Shown piece by piece: positions 3,999-13,294 of a stretch of 64,000 nt of DNA. The stretch is from a virus. Under the pieces are notes generated by a model. The model was not told where the DNA came from and made no database searches. It saw only the letters and a program-made list of their open reading frames with translations. The first letter of the stretch is position 1. Every line of letters begins with the position of its first letter. Position numbers and translations under genes: made by a program. The stretch is taken from IMG/VR virus record IMGVR_UViG_3300045988_115355, positions 1 to 64,000 of that record; one strand, 5' to 3'.

Positions 3999-5073
3999 AC
4001 TCATTATCTCTGTTAATGCAGAAGGTAAGATAAGATATTTACAAGAAAGGTTTCCTTCTACTGAATGGTCAGGAGCATTGTTTATCTCTCATGAAGAGAA
4101 GGATAATATATGTACTATTACAGCAGAGGACATATACCCAATGAATGTAGGTAGTTCTGTGTTCACAGAGTTTAATTTCAATGAAGAGGTAACCTCTTAT
4201 ATGGCTAATCATCCTGAAACCTTTGAGTGGGATTTAGCTTTAGTACACTCTCATCATAACATGTCTACCCATCCCTCACAGACAGATATAGACACTCTTC
4301 TTTCCTTAGGAGAAGATATTAATAGTCTGCTGTCTCTTATTGTAAATAATATAGGAGAATATACTGCTATGCTGTCAAGGAAGGCTACTACTAAGACAGA
4401 ACTAATTACTAAGGATATTACAAATACCTTATTTGATGGTACTTATAAGTCTCCTATTCCTGAAAAGAAGTGTAGTGATGACACTGTTGTAGTATGGGAA
4501 TATGTACCTATTACTATCATTAAAAGTGAGCCTATCACTACTATTAAGGAAAGAGTTGATGAGATTGAGGCTAAGCACATTAAGCTTCTTGAAGAGTATA
4601 AATATCCTAAGCAAGGAGAATTGGATTTTATGGATAGGTATTATAACCACCTTAGTAAGGAGAATACTTATTATTCTAAGTGGGATAATGAAGTTATCCC
4701 TGTCAGTGAAGACTTACAGGAGTTAGCTTTAAAAGCTGTACAGAAGATGGTGAAATGTAACATCAATATAGATGCTAAAACGTCTATATATGAGTTACAA
4801 AGGTTTGTATCTAATTATATGAACACTCTCTATACTCGTAATTTCTCAAATTCAAAGTATGGTAGTTATACTCTCTTTGATGATTGGGCATATTTCATTA
4901 CAGAGTTTATCCTTAATAAATATAGTGAGGAAGGTGATGAAGAAACCTTTATTAAAGCTGTATTAGATGTGCTCTATGAGTTAGATACACAAAATTATTA
5001 TATTACAAAGTATATAGAAATCCTTGAAGGTTTCTTACCTGAAGAGGACTATACACATATCATTAAAGATTAA
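3967..5073 (+). CDS. JAB/MPN+ (JAMM) zinc metalloprotease-domain protein (368 aa), with a ~200 aa C-terminal extension of unknown function
   Basis: Exact JAMM signature H-x-H-x7-S-x2-D at residues 94-107 ('HSHHNMSTHPSQTD', nt 4246-4287). An upstream Glu candidate lies in 'SGALFISHEE'. Confidence 0.7.
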   Translation: MKQKDSLKSFKLIISVNAEGKIRYLQERFPSTEWSGALFISHEEKDNICTITAEDIYPMNVGSSVFTEFNFNEEVTSYMANHPETFEWDLALVHSHHNMSTHPSQTDIDTLLSLGEDINSLLSLIVNNIGEYTAMLSRKATTKTELITKDITNTLFDGTYKSPIPEKKCSDDTVVVWEYVPITIIKSEPITTIKERVDEIEAKHIKLLEEYKYPKQGELDFMDRYYNHLSKENTYYSKWDNEVIPVSEDLQELALKAVQKMVKCNINIDAKTSIYELQRFVSNYMNTLYTRNFSNSKYGSYTLFDDWAYFITEFILNKYSEEGDEETFIKAVLDVLYELDTQNYYITKYIEILEGFLPEEDYTHIIKD

Positions 5074-5078
5074 GTAAA

Positions 5079-6059
5079 ATGAATGAAGAAAATTACAATC
5101 TTACAGATGAAGATGTAAATGTTATTCTTAATGAGTTAAATGGTAGCATAGATAGTGCTGCTATAGAGAATTCTGATGAGAATCCTACTGAACAGAATTC
5201 TACTGATAGTGCAGAAGATAACTCGAATGAAAGTGAAACCCCTGTAGCAGGGAATTCTACAGAGGATTCTCCCAATGAGGATTCTCCCAATGAGAATTCT
5301 ACTACTGAAGAGCCTGTTATTGTAGAACTTGTAATGGAGAATATTCCTTTAAACAATGATTCCACAATGAATGAAAATCGTAGTAGGTTCTCTGGAGCAC
5401 CATGGTTTAATGCTGTAGCAGAAGAAAGATGTTTTATCTTAGGAGCAGGAGGTATAGGTAGTTGGACTGCTTATCATATAGCTAAGTTAGGAACTTCTAT
5501 CTGTCAAGTAGATAATGATAGAGTATCTGCACAGAATTTAGCAGGACAACTGTTTGCAATAGATGATATAGGTAATTATAAAGTAAGTGCTTTAGGAAAT
5601 CTTATACAAAGACTGAATGATGAGTATAAGTATTCAGGAAGAGAAGTTAGACTGATGTCAGATGAACAATATGACAGATATATTATGCCTATTACTATCT
5701 CTTGTGTAGATAATATGGAAGCAAGAAAGAAACTCTTTAGAGCTTGGAAAAGACAGGAATATAGAGCTTTATTTCTTGATGGTAGGTTATCTGCTGACAC
5801 TTTACAAGTATTCTGTATAACAGGACAAGATGAGGCTTATATGAAGGAGTATGAAGAGAAATGGCTCTTTAGTGATGCAGAAGCTGATGAAGGAGTATGT
5901 TCTTTTAAACAAACTTCTTATATGGCTTGTATGATAGGTTCTATCATCACTAACTTGTTTATCAACTATGTTGCTAATAGAGCTACAGGAGACTATTATG
6001 ATTTACCTTTTTTCATAGAGTATAATGCTCCTTATGTTTTATTTAAAATACAAAAATAA
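5079..6059 (+). CDS. E1-like ThiF/MoeB-family adenylyltransferase (326 aa) with a ~100 aa acidic low-complexity N-terminus
   Basis: 'CFILGAGGIGSWTAYHIAKLGTSICQVDNDRVSAQNLAGQLF' fits the ThiF/MoeB Rossmann GxGxxG + 'DxDxVxxSNLxRQ' region. 'ISCVDNMEARKKL' fits the MoeB 'DCTDNxxxRxxLN' motif. A C-terminal 'GVCSF...ACMIGSIIT' segment is also present. Confidence 0.75.
   Translation: MNEENYNLTDEDVNVILNELNGSIDSAAIENSDENPTEQNSTDSAEDNSNESETPVAGNSTEDSPNEDSPNENSTTEEPVIVELVMENIPLNNDSTMNENRSRFSGAPWFNAVAEERCFILGAGGIGSWTAYHIAKLGTSICQVDNDRVSAQNLAGQLFAIDDIGNYKVSALGNLIQRLNDEYKYSGREVRLMSDEQYDRYIMPITISCVDNMEARKKLFRAWKRQEYRALFLDGRLSADTLQVFCITGQDEAYMKEYEEKWLFSDAEADEGVCSFKQTSYMACMIGSIITNLFINYVANRATGDYYDLPFFIEYNAPYVLFKIQK
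5262..5300 (+). repeat. 15-bp tandem direct repeat 'gaggattctcccaat' x2 plus a partial third unit, inside the E1-like gene (encodes EDSPN-EDSPN-EN)
   Basis: Units at 5262-5276 and 5277-5291 are identical. Read directly from the sequence. Confidence 0.6.
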
Positions 6060-6658
6060 TGGTCAGAGAGAATAAAGTATATACAGCTGTAGGCTGCTTT
6101 ATACGTGACCTACAGGATTATACTATTAAAGCATACTATAAAAGGAGTGGTCTTATATTACAAGTTAATTATGGTGATACTCCTTATATATGTATGTTTT
6201 ATATAGCTAATTTGAGAAAGGAATATAACAGGTTTACATCTTCTCTTTTCTCTCCACTCTTGCAATTTCCTCATCTTCTATATAAAGTGAGGATAGGAAT
6301 AAATACTTATTATTTAGGTAGTGGAATGGTATTAGATGTTAACTATAACCCTTTATTTTATGCTTATCATACTTATAGTATTCATCAGCAGAAGTATGAT
6401 TTAAATATCCTTATCCACAAGTCTTTAACTGACAGTAGTCATATCTTACATCTTTTATTTAAAGCATTCTGTAAGAATATGGCAGAGAATGGGTTGGTTG
6501 ATTTTAAAGTTGAAGATGATGTGAAGGAATATCCTGTTGATATACACGTACATATCACAGATACTATCTCTATAGGCCTATTAAAGTCCCCGTTTATAGC
6601 AGACCAAGAAATCATTAGAGATACTATATGTGCCAATATAAGTTTTCTTTTAGGATAA
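6059..6658 (+). CDS. Hypothetical protein (199 aa). Possible partner of the E1/JAB module.
   Basis: ATG overlaps the E1 stop as TAATG. No motif recognised. Ends '...ISFLLG'. Confidence 0.5.
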   Translation: MVRENKVYTAVGCFIRDLQDYTIKAYYKRSGLILQVNYGDTPYICMFYIANLRKEYNRFTSSLFSPLLQFPHLLYKVRIGINTYYLGSGMVLDVNYNPLFYAYHTYSIHQQKYDLNILIHKSLTDSSHILHLLFKAFCKNMAENGLVDFKVEDDVKEYPVDIHVHITDTISIGLLKSPFIADQEIIRDTICANISFLLG

Positions 6659-7143
6659 TGGGAAATAAAAAGATTGTAAATGCTACTACTCAAAAGGCTT
6701 ATAATATCTCTTTCAAGAGTTTATTGGAGAAGAGGTGTTATGAGCTTTTGATAGAAGCAGGATATCATCCTTTATATGAGGGAAAAACCTTTACTTTGAT
6801 AGATGGATTCACCCCCACAAAGCCTTTTATTAGTAGAGTGTATAACAGGAAAGAGAAAAGGAAAGTATTTTCTTTCGATAGAAGAAAAATACTACCCATC
6901 ACTTATACTCCTGATTTCACTTTCATGGTAAAAGATGTGTTGGCAATCATAGAGTGTAAAGGGTTTGAGAATGATGTGTTCCCTGTAAAGAAGAAACTAT
7001 TCAGACGACTTCTTGAAGAGAAAAAACATCCTGTTATCTTCTATGAGGTTTTTGCATTGAAAGATTTAAAAATATGTATTGAACAATTAGACAGATTAAA
7101 GCATGATAAAGAGTTTAAAAGAGATTTCTTGGCAGGTAGATGA
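6658..7143 (+). CDS. PD-(D/E)xK-fold nuclease (~162 aa from ATG 6658; possible resolvase or VRR-NUC-like)
   Basis: 'ITYTPDFTFMVKDVLAIIECKG' gives a PD...(E)xK arrangement. ATG 6658 overlaps the upstream stop; the track start at 6628 is in frame upstream. Confidence 0.5.
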   Translation: MGNKKIVNATTQKAYNISFKSLLEKRCYELLIEAGYHPLYEGKTFTLIDGFTPTKPFISRVYNRKEKRKVFSFDRRKILPITYTPDFTFMVKDVLAIIECKGFENDVFPVKKKLFRRLLEEKKHPVIFYEVFALKDLKICIEQLDRLKHDKEFKRDFLAGR

Positions 7144-8185
7144 ACCTACCTATAGGGCAGATGATGCCCTTTCCTATTCTACATTAGCTAAATATGAGAG
7201 AGAAGGTAAGTTTAACAGCTTACCTAAACTCTTTGAAAAGGTAAGTACACCATCACTTACTTTTGGCTCTATGGTAGATACTTTGATTACAGGTACTAAA
7301 GAAGAGTTTGATAATCTGTTTATGGTAGTAGATTTCCCTGCCATTTCTGATAGTCTTGTAGAAATAGCTACTACACTATATCAAAAGTATGGTAGCCATC
7401 CTAATGATATCTTTGAAGAGTATTATGAGAAATTTGAGGATATCCCTGAAAGTATCTTAGCTACTGTAGGTAAAGAATGTAACTTTTATGCCAATGATAA
7501 GTATGCTTCTTATAGGGCGAAAATTATCAAAGAGGGTTGTAAAGAATATTTTAACCTGCTTAAGCTATCAGAAGGTAAGGTCATTGTTGACAATGACACT
7601 GCTGATAAGGCTTATAAAGCTGTAGAAGCCTTAAAAACAAGTAACGCTACAAAGTTCTATTTTAAAGACGACAGTCCTTTAGAGCCTAATATTGAAAGAT
7701 ATTATCAGTTGAAATTTAAAGCTACTGATAGTATAGGTCTTGTTAACTATAGATGTATGGCGGATTTGATTATAGTAGACCATGCTACTAAGACTATACA
7801 GCCTATAGATTTGAAGACTTCTTCTCATGCAGAATGGGACTTTTATAAGTCCTTTATGGATTGGCGTTATGACATACAGGCAAGACTATACTACAGACTT
7901 ATTCAAAGTAACTGTGCTAAGGATGAGTACTTTAAAGACTTTAAGATTTTAGACTATAAGTTTATTGTAGTCAATAAATCCTCTTTAACACCTTTAGTGT
8001 GGACTTATCCTCATACACAGGTACAAGGAACTCTTAAATATAGTTTAAATTCAGGCTATATGTTTACTTTAAGAGATCCTTATGAGATAGGAAAGGAATT
8101 AAATTATTATCTTTGTCGTCCTGATGTTAAAGTACCAAGAGATATTAGGGATGATAATAACATTGTAGAGTTTATAACAAAGTAA
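7103..8185 (+). CDS. RecB/Cas4-family PD-(D/E)xK exonuclease (phage recombination exonuclease-like), 360 aa
   Basis: 'ADLIIVDHATKTIQPIDLKTSS' supplies the hhD and DxKT motifs. 'YDIQARLYY' is a QxxxY motif. The true start is uncertain: it overlaps the upstream gene by 41 nt. Confidence 0.6.
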   Translation: MIKSLKEISWQVDEPTYRADDALSYSTLAKYEREGKFNSLPKLFEKVSTPSLTFGSMVDTLITGTKEEFDNLFMVVDFPAISDSLVEIATTLYQKYGSHPNDIFEEYYEKFEDIPESILATVGKECNFYANDKYASYRAKIIKEGCKEYFNLLKLSEGKVIVDNDTADKAYKAVEALKTSNATKFYFKDDSPLEPNIERYYQLKFKATDSIGLVNYRCMADLIIVDHATKTIQPIDLKTSSHAEWDFYKSFMDWRYDIQARLYYRLIQSNCAKDEYFKDFKILDYKFIVVNKSSLTPLVWTYPHTQVQGTLKYSLNSGYMFTLRDPYEIGKELNYYLCRPDVKVPRDIRDDNNIVEFITK

Positions 8186-8351
8186 GTATGAAGTATCTCA
8201 TTAATGCTGATTTAGTACATTTCAATAAGCTCTTTAGAGCTACTGCTATTGTAGTAGCTAAGGATGAAGAGGCTGCTATAGCTAAATATAAAAGGAAAAT
8301 CAGAAGTACACTACACATGAAGTGTACGGAGATTAATATTGAAAGTCTATC

Positions 8352-8609
8352 ATGGGGTTGAATAGAAAATGGGAAGCTTTTATAGATACCCATATCCCCT
8401 ATGAAAAGAGAGGATATATCTATAAACGCTATAGTGAAGATGAGAGATTAAGACAGATTGCTCATCAGAGAAGAGGATTTGTAAAGGGTTATAAGGCTTA
8501 TAGAGACTTAGTAAAAACTCATTTAAAGCTCTTTCCTAATGAGACAATGACAGAGTTTAAGGAGTTTTTAAAGAAACTCCCTAAACCTTTCTCTCCTGAA
8601 GATAAATAA
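8352..8609 (+). CDS. Hypothetical small basic protein (85 aa)
   Basis: ATG ORF. No motif. Confidence 0.4.
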   Translation: MGLNRKWEAFIDTHIPYEKRGYIYKRYSEDERLRQIAHQRRGFVKGYKAYRDLVKTHLKLFPNETMTEFKEFLKKLPKPFSPEDK

Positions 8610-8618
8610 GTAAAGAAT

Positions 8619-9116
8619 ATGAAATTAAAGATTAAAGTTAAAGTAAAATTTGATTCCCTTTTCCCTGAAGTCATTGATAAGGGAGATTGGGTGGATTTAA
8701 AATTGCCTTATTTGGCTATCTTAAATCCTTGTACAGCTAAGGGGAATGGGGAAATACAATTTTCCTATAATAACATTCCTTTGGGAATAGCTATGGAGCT
8801 TCCTAAAGGATTTGAAGCTATTGTTGCTCCAAGGAGTTCTACCTTTCAGAGGTATGGTATCATTCAAGCTAATGGGATAGGAGTGGTGGATAATAGCTAT
8901 TGTTCTGATAAAGATGAATGGCATTTCCCTATTATCTCTACAAAGAGAATTACTGTCTTTGAAGGTACAAGATTATGTCAGTTTAAGATACAGTTATCAC
9001 AGAAAGCTACCTTCTTACAGAAACTGAAATGGTTATTCTCTAATGGTATTGAATTTATCAAAGTCTCTTCTTTGGATAATGAGACAAGAGGGGGCTTTGG
9101 GAGTACAGGTGATTGA
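8619..9116 (+). CDS. dut: dUTP diphosphatase (dUTPase)
   Basis: All the conserved dUTPase motifs are present: 'VAPRSSTFQRYGI', 'GVVDNSYCSDKDEW', 'RLCQFKI', and the C-terminal 'TRGGFGSTGD'. Confidence 0.9.
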   Translation: MKLKIKVKVKFDSLFPEVIDKGDWVDLKLPYLAILNPCTAKGNGEIQFSYNNIPLGIAMELPKGFEAIVAPRSSTFQRYGIIQANGIGVVDNSYCSDKDEWHFPIISTKRITVFEGTRLCQFKIQLSQKATFLQKLKWLFSNGIEFIKVSSLDNETRGGFGSTGD

Positions 9117-9118
9117 AG

Positions 9119-9595
9119 ATGATTATAACAAGTATTATTATTTTTATCTTTGTAGTCTCTTGTATCTATATCAAGTATGAAATATCCAAGAGTATCTATG
9201 TACTTCCTTTCTTAGAGCCTGTAAAGGATTTAAAGTTCCCTATTATCACCTTTGATTGCCAAGGTAAGAAATTAAATTTTATCATTGACACAGGGAGTAT
9301 GGATTCTATTATAGACAGTGAAGTATGTAATACTCTTGAAGGAAGAGTGCTTGATAAACAGTCTACTATCTATGGTTTAAATGGGGTTCTTTCGCAAGCA
9401 TATTATATCCTAATAGATTTAGAGTATAAAGGGAATAAGGTCGAAAACTTATTCTTAACAGCAGATATCAAGGAGACTATGAAGGACTTTAAAGAATCTA
9501 AAGGTATAGAAATTCATGGTTTGATAGGTAGTAAATTCTTAAATGTTTATCAATCTATTATAGACTATAAGAAAGAGTGTTTAACATTTAAATAA
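9119..9595 (+). CDS. Membrane-anchored retropepsin-like (clan AA) aspartic protease, ~158 aa from ATG 9119 (track TTG start at 9113)
   Basis: Hydrophobic N-terminus 'MIITSIIIFIFVVSCIYI'. Active-site motif 'FIIDTGSMDS' (DTG at 9287-9295). C-terminal 'IHGLIGSKFL' matches the retropepsin hhGxDhL motif. Confidence 0.55.
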   Translation: MIITSIIIFIFVVSCIYIKYEISKSIYVLPFLEPVKDLKFPIITFDCQGKKLNFIIDTGSMDSIIDSEVCNTLEGRVLDKQSTIYGLNGVLSQAYYILIDLEYKGNKVENLFLTADIKETMKDFKESKGIEIHGLIGSKFLNVYQSIIDYKKECLTFK

Positions 9596-9601
9596 TAAGT
9601 T

Positions 9602-9799
9602 ATGTTTATTTCAATTTTAGATTATACCACTAATAGTGTGGTTGTAAGAGAAGTACCTAAAGAGCTTGAAGATGCCAGTGATGATGAAATCTTAGAAGGT
9701 GTGAATTTTGGTAATTTAGACTGCTCTTTTGTCATCAGTGATACTATGGAGGTAGATGTAAAAACAAAGAAAGTAAAGGTAAATATTTCTTTAGAGTAG
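9602..9799 (+). CDS. Hypothetical small acidic protein (65 aa)
   Basis: ATG ORF. Ends with TAG one codon before, and in the same frame as, the polymerase ATG. Confidence 0.35.
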   Translation: MFISILDYTTNSVVVREVPKELEDASDDEILEGVNFGNLDCSFVISDTMEVDVKTKKVKVNISLE

Positions 9800-9802
9800 A
9801 AG

Positions 9803-12130
9803 ATGGTTTATTTAGTATCTAAGAAAGAGTATAATTATCCTACTGTCAAGCAGATAACTGTAGATAAATCCTTAGACCTTTTAAAGGCTTGTGATAGACT
9901 GCAATTAGATACTGAAACTACAGGATTAGATGCTCATATAGATAAACTACTTACTCTCCAGTTAGGTAATGCTATTAAGAACTTTCAGATAGTTATAGAT
10001 GCTACAACCATTGATATCTTAATCTATAAAGAGATATTAGAGAATACATTCCTTATAGGTCATAACTTAAAGTTTGATTTACAATGGTTATATAATTATG
10101 GTATTCATCCTCTTAGGATATACGATACTATGATTGTAGAGCAGTTCCTACATTTAGGTTATCCTGCTTCTTTGGAGTTATCAGAAGAAGAGTATAAAGA
10201 AGAGCATTATCATTATCCTCACCATGCTTATCATAATAAGTATGGCGTTTATTCTTATAAACTAAGTTATGCTTTAGATGCAGTAGCTATGTTTAGAATA
10301 AATAAAAAGATTGATAAGACTATAAGAGGTCAGATTATCTATAGAGGATTAGATGAGAAGGTTATTCTTTATGCTGCTGGGGATGTAGAACCTCTTGAAG
10401 CTATTATGTATAAACAGCTTGAAGATGTAAAGAGAGTTCCTAATGCTCTTAGAGGGATGCAGATAGAATGTGAGTTTGTAGCTTCTGTGGCTTATCTGGA
10501 GTGGTGTGGTATTAAACTTGATGAATCTAAATGGAAAGAGAAGATGATGAGAGATAAACATAATCTCGATTTATCTTTAAAAGCCTTAGATGATTGGTTT
10601 ATAGCCTTCTTTATGGAGCATCATGTGGGAAATATCAGAAGCCCTACCATTAAGGTTACAAGGAAAGGCAGTAACATTCCTCATGGAGCTACGAATGTTC
10701 AGTTCCTCCCTAAAGAAAAGACTTATCAGTATGATGAAGTCATATCCCTTGTAGACAGTAATAATAATCCTTTGGTTGTTTATAATGACCAATATGATTT
10801 ATTCACTTCAAATGAGAACATAGGTACTTATAGATGTGAAATAAATTGGGCATCCTCTCGGCAAGTTATTCTTGTTGCTAAGATACTTGGCTTTGATGTT
10901 AATACTATAGATAAAAAGACAGGTAAAGAGAAAGAGAGTGCAGGCTTTGATGTTCTTAATCTACAGAGAGGTGTCAATGATGAGTTCTTAAGGTTATATT
11001 TAGGTGAAGGAAGAGAAGGTGATGATGATTATTTTGCAGGATATAGTGGGAGTTTTAAAGTATATACTTCCTTTGGGCAAGGGCATTTAAATGCTATTAA
11101 CCCTTATACAGGAAGAATACATACTGTTTATAGAGCTATAGGTACTATATCAGGTAGAATGTCTTCAGGCAGTTCTGACAGTAATAAATCTTTAGCTAAA
11201 GCAAAAGGCTTAAGCGCTAAAGATGTGAGTTATCCTAATATGCAACAATTACCCCATGATGCTATTACAAGAGCTTGTTTTATAGCTGAAAAAGGTAATG
11301 CTTTTATATCATGTGATTATAGTGCTATGGAGGCAAGAATTGGTGCTGATGTATATAATGAACATAAGTTACTTGATGAGTTTTTATATGGTTCAGGAGA
11401 TACACATGCTGTTTATGCCAAAGCAGTATATAAAGAGGAATTAAAAGATATTCCTACATCAGAAGTAAAGAAGAAAAGACCTGATTTAAGAAATGAAGTT
11501 AAGTCAGTGGAATTCGCCACACAATTTGGGTCTGATGGTACTGCTGCTGCTAAGAAATTAGGTATAACAGTAGAAGCATCAAAGGCTTTAGTAAGTAACT
11601 TGCTTAACGGAATGACAGGTCTAAAATCTTTTAAAGAAAAAGGAGGTAAATTTGTATTGGCTCATGGATATGTAGAGATGCTTCCTGATACAGGACATAG
11701 AGGCTATTGGGTACATTATAAGAAATTTATGAGAATGCAAAAGAGCTTTACTACAGAGTTTTGGGATAAGTATAGAACTATTCATAAGCCTAATAAAGAT
11801 AAGGTCTATTATCAAGTGAAGACTTATTTTAAAGAAAGGTCTAAATGGTGTGATAGGTTAACCCTTAATATGCCAACGCAAGGCGGAGGAAGTGTTTGCC
11901 TGAAAGTAGCTGTAAATAGTATATATAGATGGATTATAGAGCATGGTTATTGGGATAAAATACTGTTTGTTAATTTCACTCATGATGAGATAAATAGTGA
12001 ATGCCCTGAAGAGATAAAAGAAGAATATGCTAAGGTAGTCAAAACTAAAATGCTTGAAGCAGCTGCATTGTTCTACCATAAGCTACCTATTCCTGCTGAA
12101 GCAGAGATAAGTGACCATTGGGTACATTAA
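9803..12130 (+). CDS. Family A (Pol I-like) DNA polymerase with an N-terminal 3'-5' exonuclease domain, 775 aa
   Basis: Exo I 'LDTETTGLD'. Exo II 'GHNLKFDLQWL'. Pol motif A 'CDYSAMEARIG' (~11315). Motif B 'RNEVKSVEFATQFGSDG' (R..K...F..YG-like). Motif C 'FTHDEI' (~11981). Confidence 0.9.
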   Translation: MVYLVSKKEYNYPTVKQITVDKSLDLLKACDRLQLDTETTGLDAHIDKLLTLQLGNAIKNFQIVIDATTIDILIYKEILENTFLIGHNLKFDLQWLYNYGIHPLRIYDTMIVEQFLHLGYPASLELSEEEYKEEHYHYPHHAYHNKYGVYSYKLSYALDAVAMFRINKKIDKTIRGQIIYRGLDEKVILYAAGDVEPLEAIMYKQLEDVKRVPNALRGMQIECEFVASVAYLEWCGIKLDESKWKEKMMRDKHNLDLSLKALDDWFIAFFMEHHVGNIRSPTIKVTRKGSNIPHGATNVQFLPKEKTYQYDEVISLVDSNNNPLVVYNDQYDLFTSNENIGTYRCEINWASSRQVILVAKILGFDVNTIDKKTGKEKESAGFDVLNLQRGVNDEFLRLYLGEGREGDDDYFAGYSGSFKVYTSFGQGHLNAINPYTGRIHTVYRAIGTISGRMSSGSSDSNKSLAKAKGLSAKDVSYPNMQQLPHDAITRACFIAEKGNAFISCDYSAMEARIGADVYNEHKLLDEFLYGSGDTHAVYAKAVYKEELKDIPTSEVKKKRPDLRNEVKSVEFATQFGSDGTAAAKKLGITVEASKALVSNLLNGMTGLKSFKEKGGKFVLAHGYVEMLPDTGHRGYWVHYKKFMRMQKSFTTEFWDKYRTIHKPNKDKVYYQVKTYFKERSKWCDRLTLNMPTQGGGSVCLKVAVNSIYRWIIEHGYWDKILFVNFTHDEINSECPEEIKEEYAKVVKTKMLEAAALFYHKLPIPAEAEISDHWVH

Positions 12131-12243
12131 ATAAGTATAAATAAGGCTGAAATTACAATTTTATTTATAGTTTTGGCCTTATTATATGCTATTTGAGAGA
12201 TAGAATATGTAAAACAAGGTATTTTAATTTCAAAATAAATAAG

Positions 12244-12822
12244 ATGAAAGAAGATATTAAAGAAGACATAAGAAGCTATAATATAGGACAATCTGATTAT
12301 AGTAAGTACAAGATACAACCTTGGGATATATGGGAAGAATACCAACTCAACCCTTGGGATGCTGATATTGTCAAGAGAGTACTAAGAACAAAAGAAGGCG
12401 AAGACAGGATTACAGATTATGAAAAGATTATTCATATCTGTAAAAAGAGAATTGAACAACTTCACAAACAGAAAGCTACTGTAAAAGTAGTAGAAGAAAA
12501 TACTCCTAAGATAAATTTTGAGGATATTCAAAAGAGGATGCTTGAAAATATGCCTAAGTTAAAGTTTGAAAAGAATGGTAATAAAGATGAGTATAGAGAT
12601 ACTAATGGTATATTGTGTGAGAGTTATTACATCCATCAGGCTTTATGTGTAAATACTTTTGGTAAACGTCCTTGGGGTTTAGTTTATGGTAAGATTGAAT
12701 TTCCAAAAAGCATATCATGGTATGATACATTAGAGGAAGCTATGAAGGCAGCTAATGAGGATTACAAAAGAAGAATAAAAAGAATAGTATTAGGACTTAA
12801 TTATATGAGTGAAAAAGATTAA
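12244..12822 (+). CDS. DUF3310-like phage protein (192 aa from ATG 12244; track TTG start at 12193)
   Basis: 'YKIQPWDIWEEYQLNPWDADIVKRVLRTKEGED' resembles the DUF3310 core 'IEPIDYI....N.IKYV.RWK.KGG'. Confidence 0.45.
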   Translation: MKEDIKEDIRSYNIGQSDYSKYKIQPWDIWEEYQLNPWDADIVKRVLRTKEGEDRITDYEKIIHICKKRIEQLHKQKATVKVVEENTPKINFEDIQKRMLENMPKLKFEKNGNKDEYRDTNGILCESYYIHQALCVNTFGKRPWGLVYGKIEFPKSISWYDTLEEAMKAANEDYKRRIKRIVLGLNYMSEKD

Positions 12823-13294
12823 GTTATGAAATGCCTATAAACATGGCTGAAAATTTAATGAAAAATCAAGGCTTTATTAGCCAAGAAGATTTCAGAGAAT
12901 GGTATTACTTATAAAACAATGTAATTATGTGTACAGAAGCAGAACACTTGTCTGAAATATATAATGATTATGATGCAAGATACGATGATGAATATATTGC
13001 AGACAGAGAATATGAAAGGTTATGTACTCTTTAAAACTTAGCAGGTACAAGAGTATGTAAAAAGAAACGCCGTCTTAATAAAAAGGATAAGAATTTATAT
13101 CTTATTATACAGGATAGCAGAAAAGATAATACAACTCTTATGCTTGTTGATAGAAGAAAATCAAAGGGTTATTGGTGGACACATGACTTCTCTATTGCCT
13201 ATAAGGGTAATAAAGAAGACATGAAAAAGGCTGCTAAGAAACTTAAAAAGAACAATGTTAGAGTTGTAAGTTATGAGAAATATTTGAATAGCTT

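Follow-up and report, generated by a model that had tools for sequence, protein, structure and literature searches.

In Bacillus, SpoIIGA is a membrane-embedded, cytoplasm-facing dimeric aspartic protease with about five transmembrane (TM) segments. It cleaves pro-sigma-E at the membrane once a signal originating outside the membrane has activated it. The retropepsin APRc (ApRick) of Rickettsia conorii is said to have a membrane region of several helices and to act on surface autotransporters, and hence to face outwards. Among phages, Gp66 of crAss001, which lies inside that phage's replication/nucleotide-metabolism module, is annotated as an 'aspartyl protease'. No viruses of the human gut are more abundant than the crAss-like phages, the group of crAss001, and a good part of their infection cycle is unexplained. 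Here we analyse an open reading frame (ORF), the orthologue of Gp66, located on the plus strand at positions 9119–9595 of a 64,000-nucleotide stretch of viral DNA (IMG/VR record IMGVR_UViG_3300045988_115355, positions 1–64,000; hereafter the window) and encoding 158 amino acids (aa) followed by a stop codon. The best explanation of our data, to which we assign a probability of about 0.75, is that this Gp66 orthologue is a membrane-tethered, dimeric protease facing the cytoplasm, expressed with the middle genes of the phage and cleaving a protein at the inner face of the host membrane.

The ORF encodes a single-lobe clan AA retropepsin domain behind one N-terminal TM helix, the architecture put forward in an earlier sequence-only reading of this DNA and now borne out by hydropathy, Pfam, AlphaFold2 and Foldseek. 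Asp_protease_2 (PF13650) matched over profile positions 4–90 of 90 with 28.3 bits against a gathering score of 24.3 (E 2.9e-6), the match extending to protease residue 140, and crAss001 Gp66 scored 30.0 bits with the same family. The Pfam families gag-asp_proteas and RVP gave weaker matches to the same region. A phmmer search of PDB sequences returned retroviral proteases only, with D57-T-G aligned with D25-T-G of the human immunodeficiency virus type 1 protease (HIV-1 PR). A profile built from 41 family sequences matched the proteases of equine infectious anaemia virus (EIAV; 2e-6) and feline immunodeficiency virus (FIV; 1e-5) and, more weakly, ApRick (0.012), and its hhalign comparison with HIV-1 PR gave the same active-site register (D57 = D25). 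The NCBIfam scan yielded clan AA matches below threshold only (TIGR03698 and TIGR02281), and PHROGs holds no family for the protein, the sole match being at 0.071.

Structure prediction gave the same answer, and the aspartic-protease fold anticipated from the letters is present. The AlphaFold2 model, computed from the alignment of the same 41 sequences, has a mean predicted local distance difference test score (pLDDT) of 84.3 and a predicted template modelling score of 0.73, and consists of a helix at residues 2–23 followed by a beta-rich domain. Foldseek matched this model to APRc (5c9f, E 7e-6), many HIV-1 PR entries, the RVP domain of Ddi1 and EIAV PR, all with probability 1.00 and with target-normalised TM-scores of 0.56–0.69. 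The top fold matches in BFVD were 'Aspartyl protease [uncultured phage cr111_1]' and 'Retropepsin-like protein [CrAss-like virus sp.]'. Since entries in BFVD and GenBank already bear the names aspartyl protease and retropepsin-like, the identification of the enzyme is part of public annotation; the ORF is a divergent new member of an annotated family and does not define a new system.

The diagnostic motifs of the fold lie in order along the ORF. The catalytic triplet D57-T58-G59 (GAC ACA GGG) occupies positions 9287–9295 and is placed by alignment to D25 of HIV-1 PR; its context, I-I-D57-T-G-S, fits the motif hydrophobic-hydrophobic-D-T/S-G-A/S. The tip of the flap hairpin, I84–V90 (IYGLNGV), is encoded at 9368–9388, recognized from its conserved glycines and from a hairpin of strands 76–85 and 91–103 in the model, and phmmer aligns G86 and G89 with G49 and G52, the flap glycines of HIV-1 PR. 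The C-terminal motif H133-G-L-I-G137 (9515–9529) corresponds to the I-I-G-R-N region in HIV-1 PR; we take it to be equivalent to G86 of that enzyme, having paired the motifs ourselves rather than through a tool alignment. Two further strands of the AlphaFold2 monomer, at residues 27–30 and 154–157, are possible N- and C-terminal dimer-interface strands. The strings FIIDTGSMDS and IHGLIGSKFL, singled out in the sequence-only reading, correspond to residues 54–63 and 132–141, and both these strings and the placement of the ORF between a dUTPase and a DNA polymerase, one small ORF before the latter, agree with the coordinates and with Pfam.

This is a genuine, conserved protein-coding gene and no chance ORF, because its Pfam score exceeds the cut-off, comparison with a relative of 92% identity (L003) gives a ratio of nonsynonymous to synonymous substitution (dN/dS) of 0.089, its family comprises 331 clusters even at E≤1e-30, and the strand opposite is empty save for an ORF of 31 aa. 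It starts with ATG at 9119 and stops with TAA at 9593–9595, and an alternative in-frame TTG start lies at 9113.

The family is large and its catalytic features scarcely vary. A profile search of 5.8 billion proteins returned 442 matches; the 120 homologues listed are 158–188 aa long, all but one being at most 171 aa, and many are encoded on contigs of about 100 kb. A HMMER search of 1.84 billion representatives of clusters defined at 50% identity gave 4,260 matches at E≤1e-3, 1,134 at ≤1e-10 and 331 at ≤1e-30. Of its top 150 matches, the majority span the whole profile, and some are shorter and lack the N-terminal part. A near-identical relative (P0001, 93–94% identical) scored 1e-55 against the family profile and 4e-45 in the HMMER search. 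Conservation was counted over 121 sequences, the window protein and its 120 homologues. In all of them D57, G59, G89, G134, F140, Y144, K51, N53 and F31 are invariant; T58 and G86 each occur in 120, the exception at position 58 being a single Ser, and position 137 is Gly in 97 and Ser in 24. The conserved DTG and flap glycines are what would be expected of an active enzyme, and we regard the protein as probably competent for catalysis.

Orthology to Gp66 and the type of phage were assessed together. In a tblastn search with the protease, 49 of 50,697 phage records matched, at 30–37% identity and with E values from 4e-19 to 7e-10. All the matches that were named or inspected are crAss-like, the inspected ones belonging to Steigviridae/Asinivirinae, and most are annotated 'aspartyl protease'; they include crAss001 Gp66, the PhiCrAssBcn isolates, cr128_1, Kolpuevirus and IAS virus. 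The sequence-only reading had called such proteases uncommon in phage replication modules. For phages in general this stands, given 49 records in 50,697 and the lack of a PHROGs family; within this crAss-like group it does not, for there the protease is a fixed, annotated gene. A megablast search of positions 8000–13000 against the phage collection gave no match; the phage is a distant relation of those sequenced. Its family-A DNA polymerase (PolA) is 40% identical to the 'DNA polymerase A' of Kolpuevirus and 32–34% identical to the other listed matches. The layout of the window is typically crAss-like, with a replication block on the plus strand followed by giant ORFs and structural genes on the minus strand. 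The run of giant minus-strand ORFs between 22567 and 52308 (1354, 2996, 1823, 601, 1395 and 1674 aa) is typical of the virion RNA polymerase/tail block of crAss-like phages and confirms the phage type. The window thus evidently derives from a divergent crAss-like phage related to Steigviridae. Beyond phages, a scan of 185,579 species genomes returned both mis-binned crAss-like contigs and genuine chromosomal homologues of the protease, the latter in Flavobacteriia and other Bacteroidota at about 24–30% identity.

The position of the gene is as constant as its motifs. Directly upstream on the plus strand lies a dUTPase gene (8619–9116; Pfam dUTPase 25.1 bits against a cut-off of 22 bits; phrog_135 1.4e-18), whose stop falls 2 nucleotides (nt) before the protease ATG and whose dN/dS against L003 is 0.010. 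Downstream, also on the plus strand, follow a 65-aa acidic ORF (9602–9799), which fills a variable slot in the gap between protease and polymerase, and the conserved neighbour PolA with its 3'–5' exonuclease domain (9803–12130; DNA_pol_A 122 bits and DNA_pol_A_exo1 53 bits in Pfam). With gaps of 2, 6 and 3 nt between them, we read the four genes as one co-directional string. A scan of positions 8000–12500 for sigma-70 promoters and terminators found no enrichment over shuffled sequences, Bacteroidota promoters not being modelled, and no tRNAs were found in the window. We compared 14 distinct phage contexts: the window, L003, crAss001, cr128_1, Kolpuevirus, DAC15, IAS virus, cr106_1 and six metagenomic contexts carrying diverse family members. 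The order dUTPase, protease, at most one small ORF, PolA was found in all 14. The dUTPase adjoins the protease in 11 of them, and one extra ORF intervenes in crAss001, L012 and L096.

Persistence beside PolA, together with the overlap of the protease stop with the PolA start in some relatives, would also suit a protein without enzymatic activity, namely an inert retropepsin fold that serves as a membrane anchor or scaffold and, for example, holds the replisome at the membrane. Inactive retropepsin-like domains do occur elsewhere. However, across 121 diverged sequences the catalytic Asp, the glycine of the DTG triplet and the two flap glycines show little or no variation, and we consider an inert scaffold extremely improbable.

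The small ORF between protease and polymerase bears on a different proposal, made when only the letters had been read, that the protease works together with its acidic neighbour. In such a two-gene functional unit the small protein would be substrate, inhibitor or cofactor. The two genes are 6 nt apart, most relatives also carry a small ORF in the slot, and the 65-aa ORF (isoelectric point 4.2; 14 D+E against 6 K+R) is under purifying selection, with a dN/dS of 0.044 against L003. The occupants of the slot are nevertheless not homologous. Most relatives have there a 'Gp65-like' protein, roughly 90 aa long and labelled muconolactone isomerase in its annotation; we rejected the 65-aa ORF as a homologue of this Gp65 on an hhalign probability of 0.09%. 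In L008 the slot holds an ORF of 49 aa, and in IAS virus, L010/L011, L012, L094 and L095 it is empty. Whereas the protease is conserved throughout the family, the 65-aa ORF has only two relatives among the 5.8 billion proteins, both near-identical. A fold search found no match for it, its AlphaFold2 model (pLDDT 73) showing a small alpha/beta fold of modest confidence. The 65-aa ORF is thus a real gene, but a lineage-specific ORFan rather than a conserved partner of the protease; the proposed partnership finds no support, and a two-gene unit is scarcely credible.

The name given to crAss001 Gp65 itself (L001 6396–6710; orthologues in L002, L004, L005 and L007) has no Pfam support, the best Pfam match being DUF1949 with an E value of 0.64. 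The label 'muconolactone isomerase' may be an over-annotation passed from one GenBank record to another.

The N-terminal TM helix (residues 2–23; 9122–9187, plus strand), identified from the AlphaFold2 model and from hydropathy, is a constant of the family. Its residues have a pLDDT of 86–94, and the first 19-mer of the protease has a mean Kyte–Doolittle hydropathy of 2.47, every other 19-mer having at most 0.95; among the homologues, the N-terminal 19-mer reaches at least 2.18 in 120 of 120. Across the 121 family members, the mean number of K and R is 0.2 ahead of the helix, rising to 3.9 over the 15 residues behind it, and in 120 the C-terminal side carries more of them; acidic residues often occur at the very N-terminus. 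From this charge bias and the positive-inside rule, the helix is predicted to be a reverse signal-anchor with the N-terminus out and the C-terminus in, so that the protease domain would face the cytoplasm.

These observations suggest how the enzyme could work. Two membrane-bound copies would dimerize and build a single active site, to which each subunit contributes one Asp, because every single-lobe retropepsin requires a dimer. The positive-inside rule would leave the short N-terminus of each in the periplasm and the protease domain in the cytoplasm. In retropepsin dimers the N- and C-terminal strands make the base opposite the flaps, and since strands 27–30 and 154–157 would lie at that base, a dimer standing on its two N-terminal helices would direct its substrate cleft away from the membrane and into the cytoplasm. 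The gene would be expressed with the replication and nucleotide-metabolism genes, as in crAss001, where the module that contains Gp66 forms the middle class and is switched on 10–30 min after infection (PMC8375218). There the protease would carry out site-specific endoproteolysis of a protein that reaches the inner face of the host membrane. The predicted topology would narrow the roles proposed in the sequence-only reading, processing of a membrane protein or regulated proteolysis, to substrates within reach of the cytoplasmic face. A conserved target on which the phage's own cycle depends, either phage-encoded or a highly conserved host membrane-associated protein, is favoured over a fast-evolving anti-defence role because the gene is a fixed, syntenic and strongly constrained core gene and not a variable accessory.

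Several points weigh against the model of a cytoplasm-facing, membrane-tethered protease. Its topology is based on charge statistics taken across the family, and in the window protein the bias is weak: nothing charged precedes the helix, and K19, E21 and K24 follow it. The same protein contains a lipobox-like VVSC at residues 12–15, and initiation at the TTG codon would put MK ahead of the helix. The conserved gene order could stem from vertical inheritance alone, with no link to dUTPase or PolA. Experimental studies of any family member were not found in the searchable literature, the paper on the crAss001 virion structure mentions no proteolytic processing, and no phage substrate is in view.

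Weak flanking charges, the VVSC that fits a lipobox and the n-region that a TTG start would supply all suit an alternative in which the N-terminus is an export signal, either an anchor with its N-terminus in and C-terminus out or a lipoprotein signal peptide. The enzyme would then be a protease of the periplasm or envelope, acting for instance in superinfection exclusion or in the trimming of receptors or envelope proteins. A bacterial precedent for such a location is APRc, which is reported to act on surface autotransporters (PMC10414592). However, a lipobox-like Cys occurs in only 3 of the 121 members, K and R after the helix outnumber those before it in 120 of 121 (3.9 against 0.2) with acidic residues common at the N-terminus, and the hydrophobic stretch of about 20 residues lacks a cleavage region of the AXA type, all of which characterizes an anchor with its N-terminus out and C-terminus in. 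A bacterial lipoprotein processed by signal peptidase II was rejected on the rarity of the lipobox and the positive charges after the helix. Export in either form is, in our judgement, distinctly unlikely.

Another possibility concerns the segment that follows the helix and is compatible with the model of a cytoplasm-facing protease: the membrane form may be a precursor that cleaves itself in the juxtamembrane segment and releases a soluble cytoplasmic enzyme, possibly acting on replication proteins. This segment has the family consensus S-F-R/K-E-S/T-M-D-L..LP, with F31 in 121, E33 in 119 and P41 in 120 of the 121 sequences, and it is where confidence in the model is lowest (mean pLDDT 64 over residues 31–40). 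Autoprocessing is typical of retropepsins and retroviral proteases, and has reportedly been seen with APRc as well. Nevertheless, the conservation may be structural, as residues 27–30 form the N-terminal interface strand in the model, a shorter form of the protease is nowhere documented, and the window protein departs from the family consensus in this very segment. We hold self-release to be unlikely.

The neighbourhood raises the question of whether the substrate is a replication protein. The retropepsin may belong to the replication machinery, activating, releasing or anchoring PolA or another replisome protein by cleavage at the inner membrane, and were this so the fixed order dUTPase, retropepsin, polymerase would be functional; we regard this as very doubtful. 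The order dUTPase, protease, polymerase (reverse transcriptase) is also that of betaretroviral pro-pol, a parallel to positions 8619–12130 that is probably coincidental. A role as a phage prohead protease was rejected: the gene lies in the plus-strand replication block and carries a TM anchor, and the structural genes are on the minus strand from about 22.5 kb. The absence of any protease or cleavage from the crAss001 virion paper also disfavours it.

Other features of the replication block were recorded alongside the protease. In L003, which is 92–93% identical to the window, roughly 1 kb of inserted DNA carrying a 311-aa ORF interrupts the PolA gene (4683–8057, corresponding to 9803–12130 of the window): the polymerase sequence breaks off after '...CDYSA' and continues at 'MEARIGADVY...' beyond the insert. 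PolA of the window is unbroken here. The insert looks like an insertion polymorphism of a mobile intron or homing endonuclease. Elsewhere PolA is split around a LAGLIDADG ORF in L094 (4030–7268), a ribonucleotide reductase is split around a LAGLIDADG ORF in L008 (70–3292), and an intein lies in NrdD in L012 (1–2192); these three insertions are selfish elements in the replication genes of family contexts. The replication block of the window also encodes, at 5079–6059 on the plus strand, a 326-aa protein of a ThiF/E1-like family (64.9 bits) with a long acidic, low-complexity N-terminal region rich in N, E, S, D and T; an unannotated 199-aa ORF comes after it.

In conclusion, the call made from sequence was correct on the fold, and its object is a divergent copy of a family that had already been annotated. 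Our analysis adds to that annotation the predicted cytoplasmic orientation and the strict dUTPase–protease–PolA synteny; it also shows how large the family is, and it rejects the 65-aa ORF as a conserved partner. One major subgroup of crAss-like phages thus carries a strictly conserved, membrane-tethered aspartic protease in its replication module. Once found, its target would show either that phage DNA replication includes a proteolytic step or that the Bacteroidales host is altered in a conserved way.

Comparison with described proteins places the enzyme most closely with crAss001 Gp66 and its Steigviridae orthologues (PhiCrAssBcn, cr128_1, Kolpuevirus, DAC15 and IAS virus). These fall in the same size class (152–171 aa), begin with a TM helix too, carry the DTG, flap-glycine and HG..G motifs, and are likewise encoded between dUTPase and PolA. 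They differ in being only 25–37% identical to the window protein and in a diverging juxtamembrane segment, and the small ORF downstream of them (Gp65-like) is unrelated to the 65-aa ORF of the window. The proteases of HIV-1, EIAV and FIV and the RVP domain of Ddi1 have the fold and catalytic motif in common with the phage protease, but the retroviral enzymes are soluble and excised from polyproteins and Ddi1 carries ubiquitin-like domains, whereas the phage gene is free-standing and its product has a TM anchor.

Two PF13650 proteins of Bacteroidota, the host phylum of crAss-like phages, are soluble or secreted, are about 24–30% identical to the phage protein and are encoded in chromosomal contexts unrelated to replication. 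That of Flavobacterium taihuense (155 aa) has a basic, non-hydrophobic N-terminus and no TM anchor, and that of Jejuia (328 aa) has a hydrophobic N-terminus, which we read as a signal peptide, and two tandem lobes. The absence of a TM anchor from both these cellular relatives, the two that were inspected, suggests that a single TM anchor at the N-terminus distinguishes the phage family. The Jejuia pallidilutea protein (L064 4977–5963) has DTG in its first lobe only, with DTA at the corresponding position of the second; its two lobes are arranged as in pepsin but consist of retropepsin-type domains. The PADLOC profile PDC-M08B matches the whole protease domain (residues 38–155, E 6e-7), but it models proteins of about 127 aa without a TM segment and belongs to a candidate bacterial defence system, not to a phage replication module. 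We read this match as shared domain ancestry only.

The two bacterial membrane proteases differ from the phage enzyme in complementary ways. APRc/ApRick (PDB 5c9b, 5c9f) heads the Foldseek matches (E 7e-6, probability 1.00) and, like the phage protein, is a prokaryote-encoded single-lobe retropepsin on an N-terminal membrane region. However, it is only 16–18% identical to the window protein, its profile E value is just 0.012, and a single helix anchors the phage protease, whose predicted orientation is towards the cytoplasm. Membership of the SpoIIGA type was rejected, the phage protein having a single hydrophobic segment, the Pfam and NCBIfam scans having returned no SpoIIGA family and none of our searches having matched SpoIIGA by sequence or profile. 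APRc is thus the closest structural relative of the phage protease and SpoIIGA its closest working analogy, the phage enzyme belonging to neither family.

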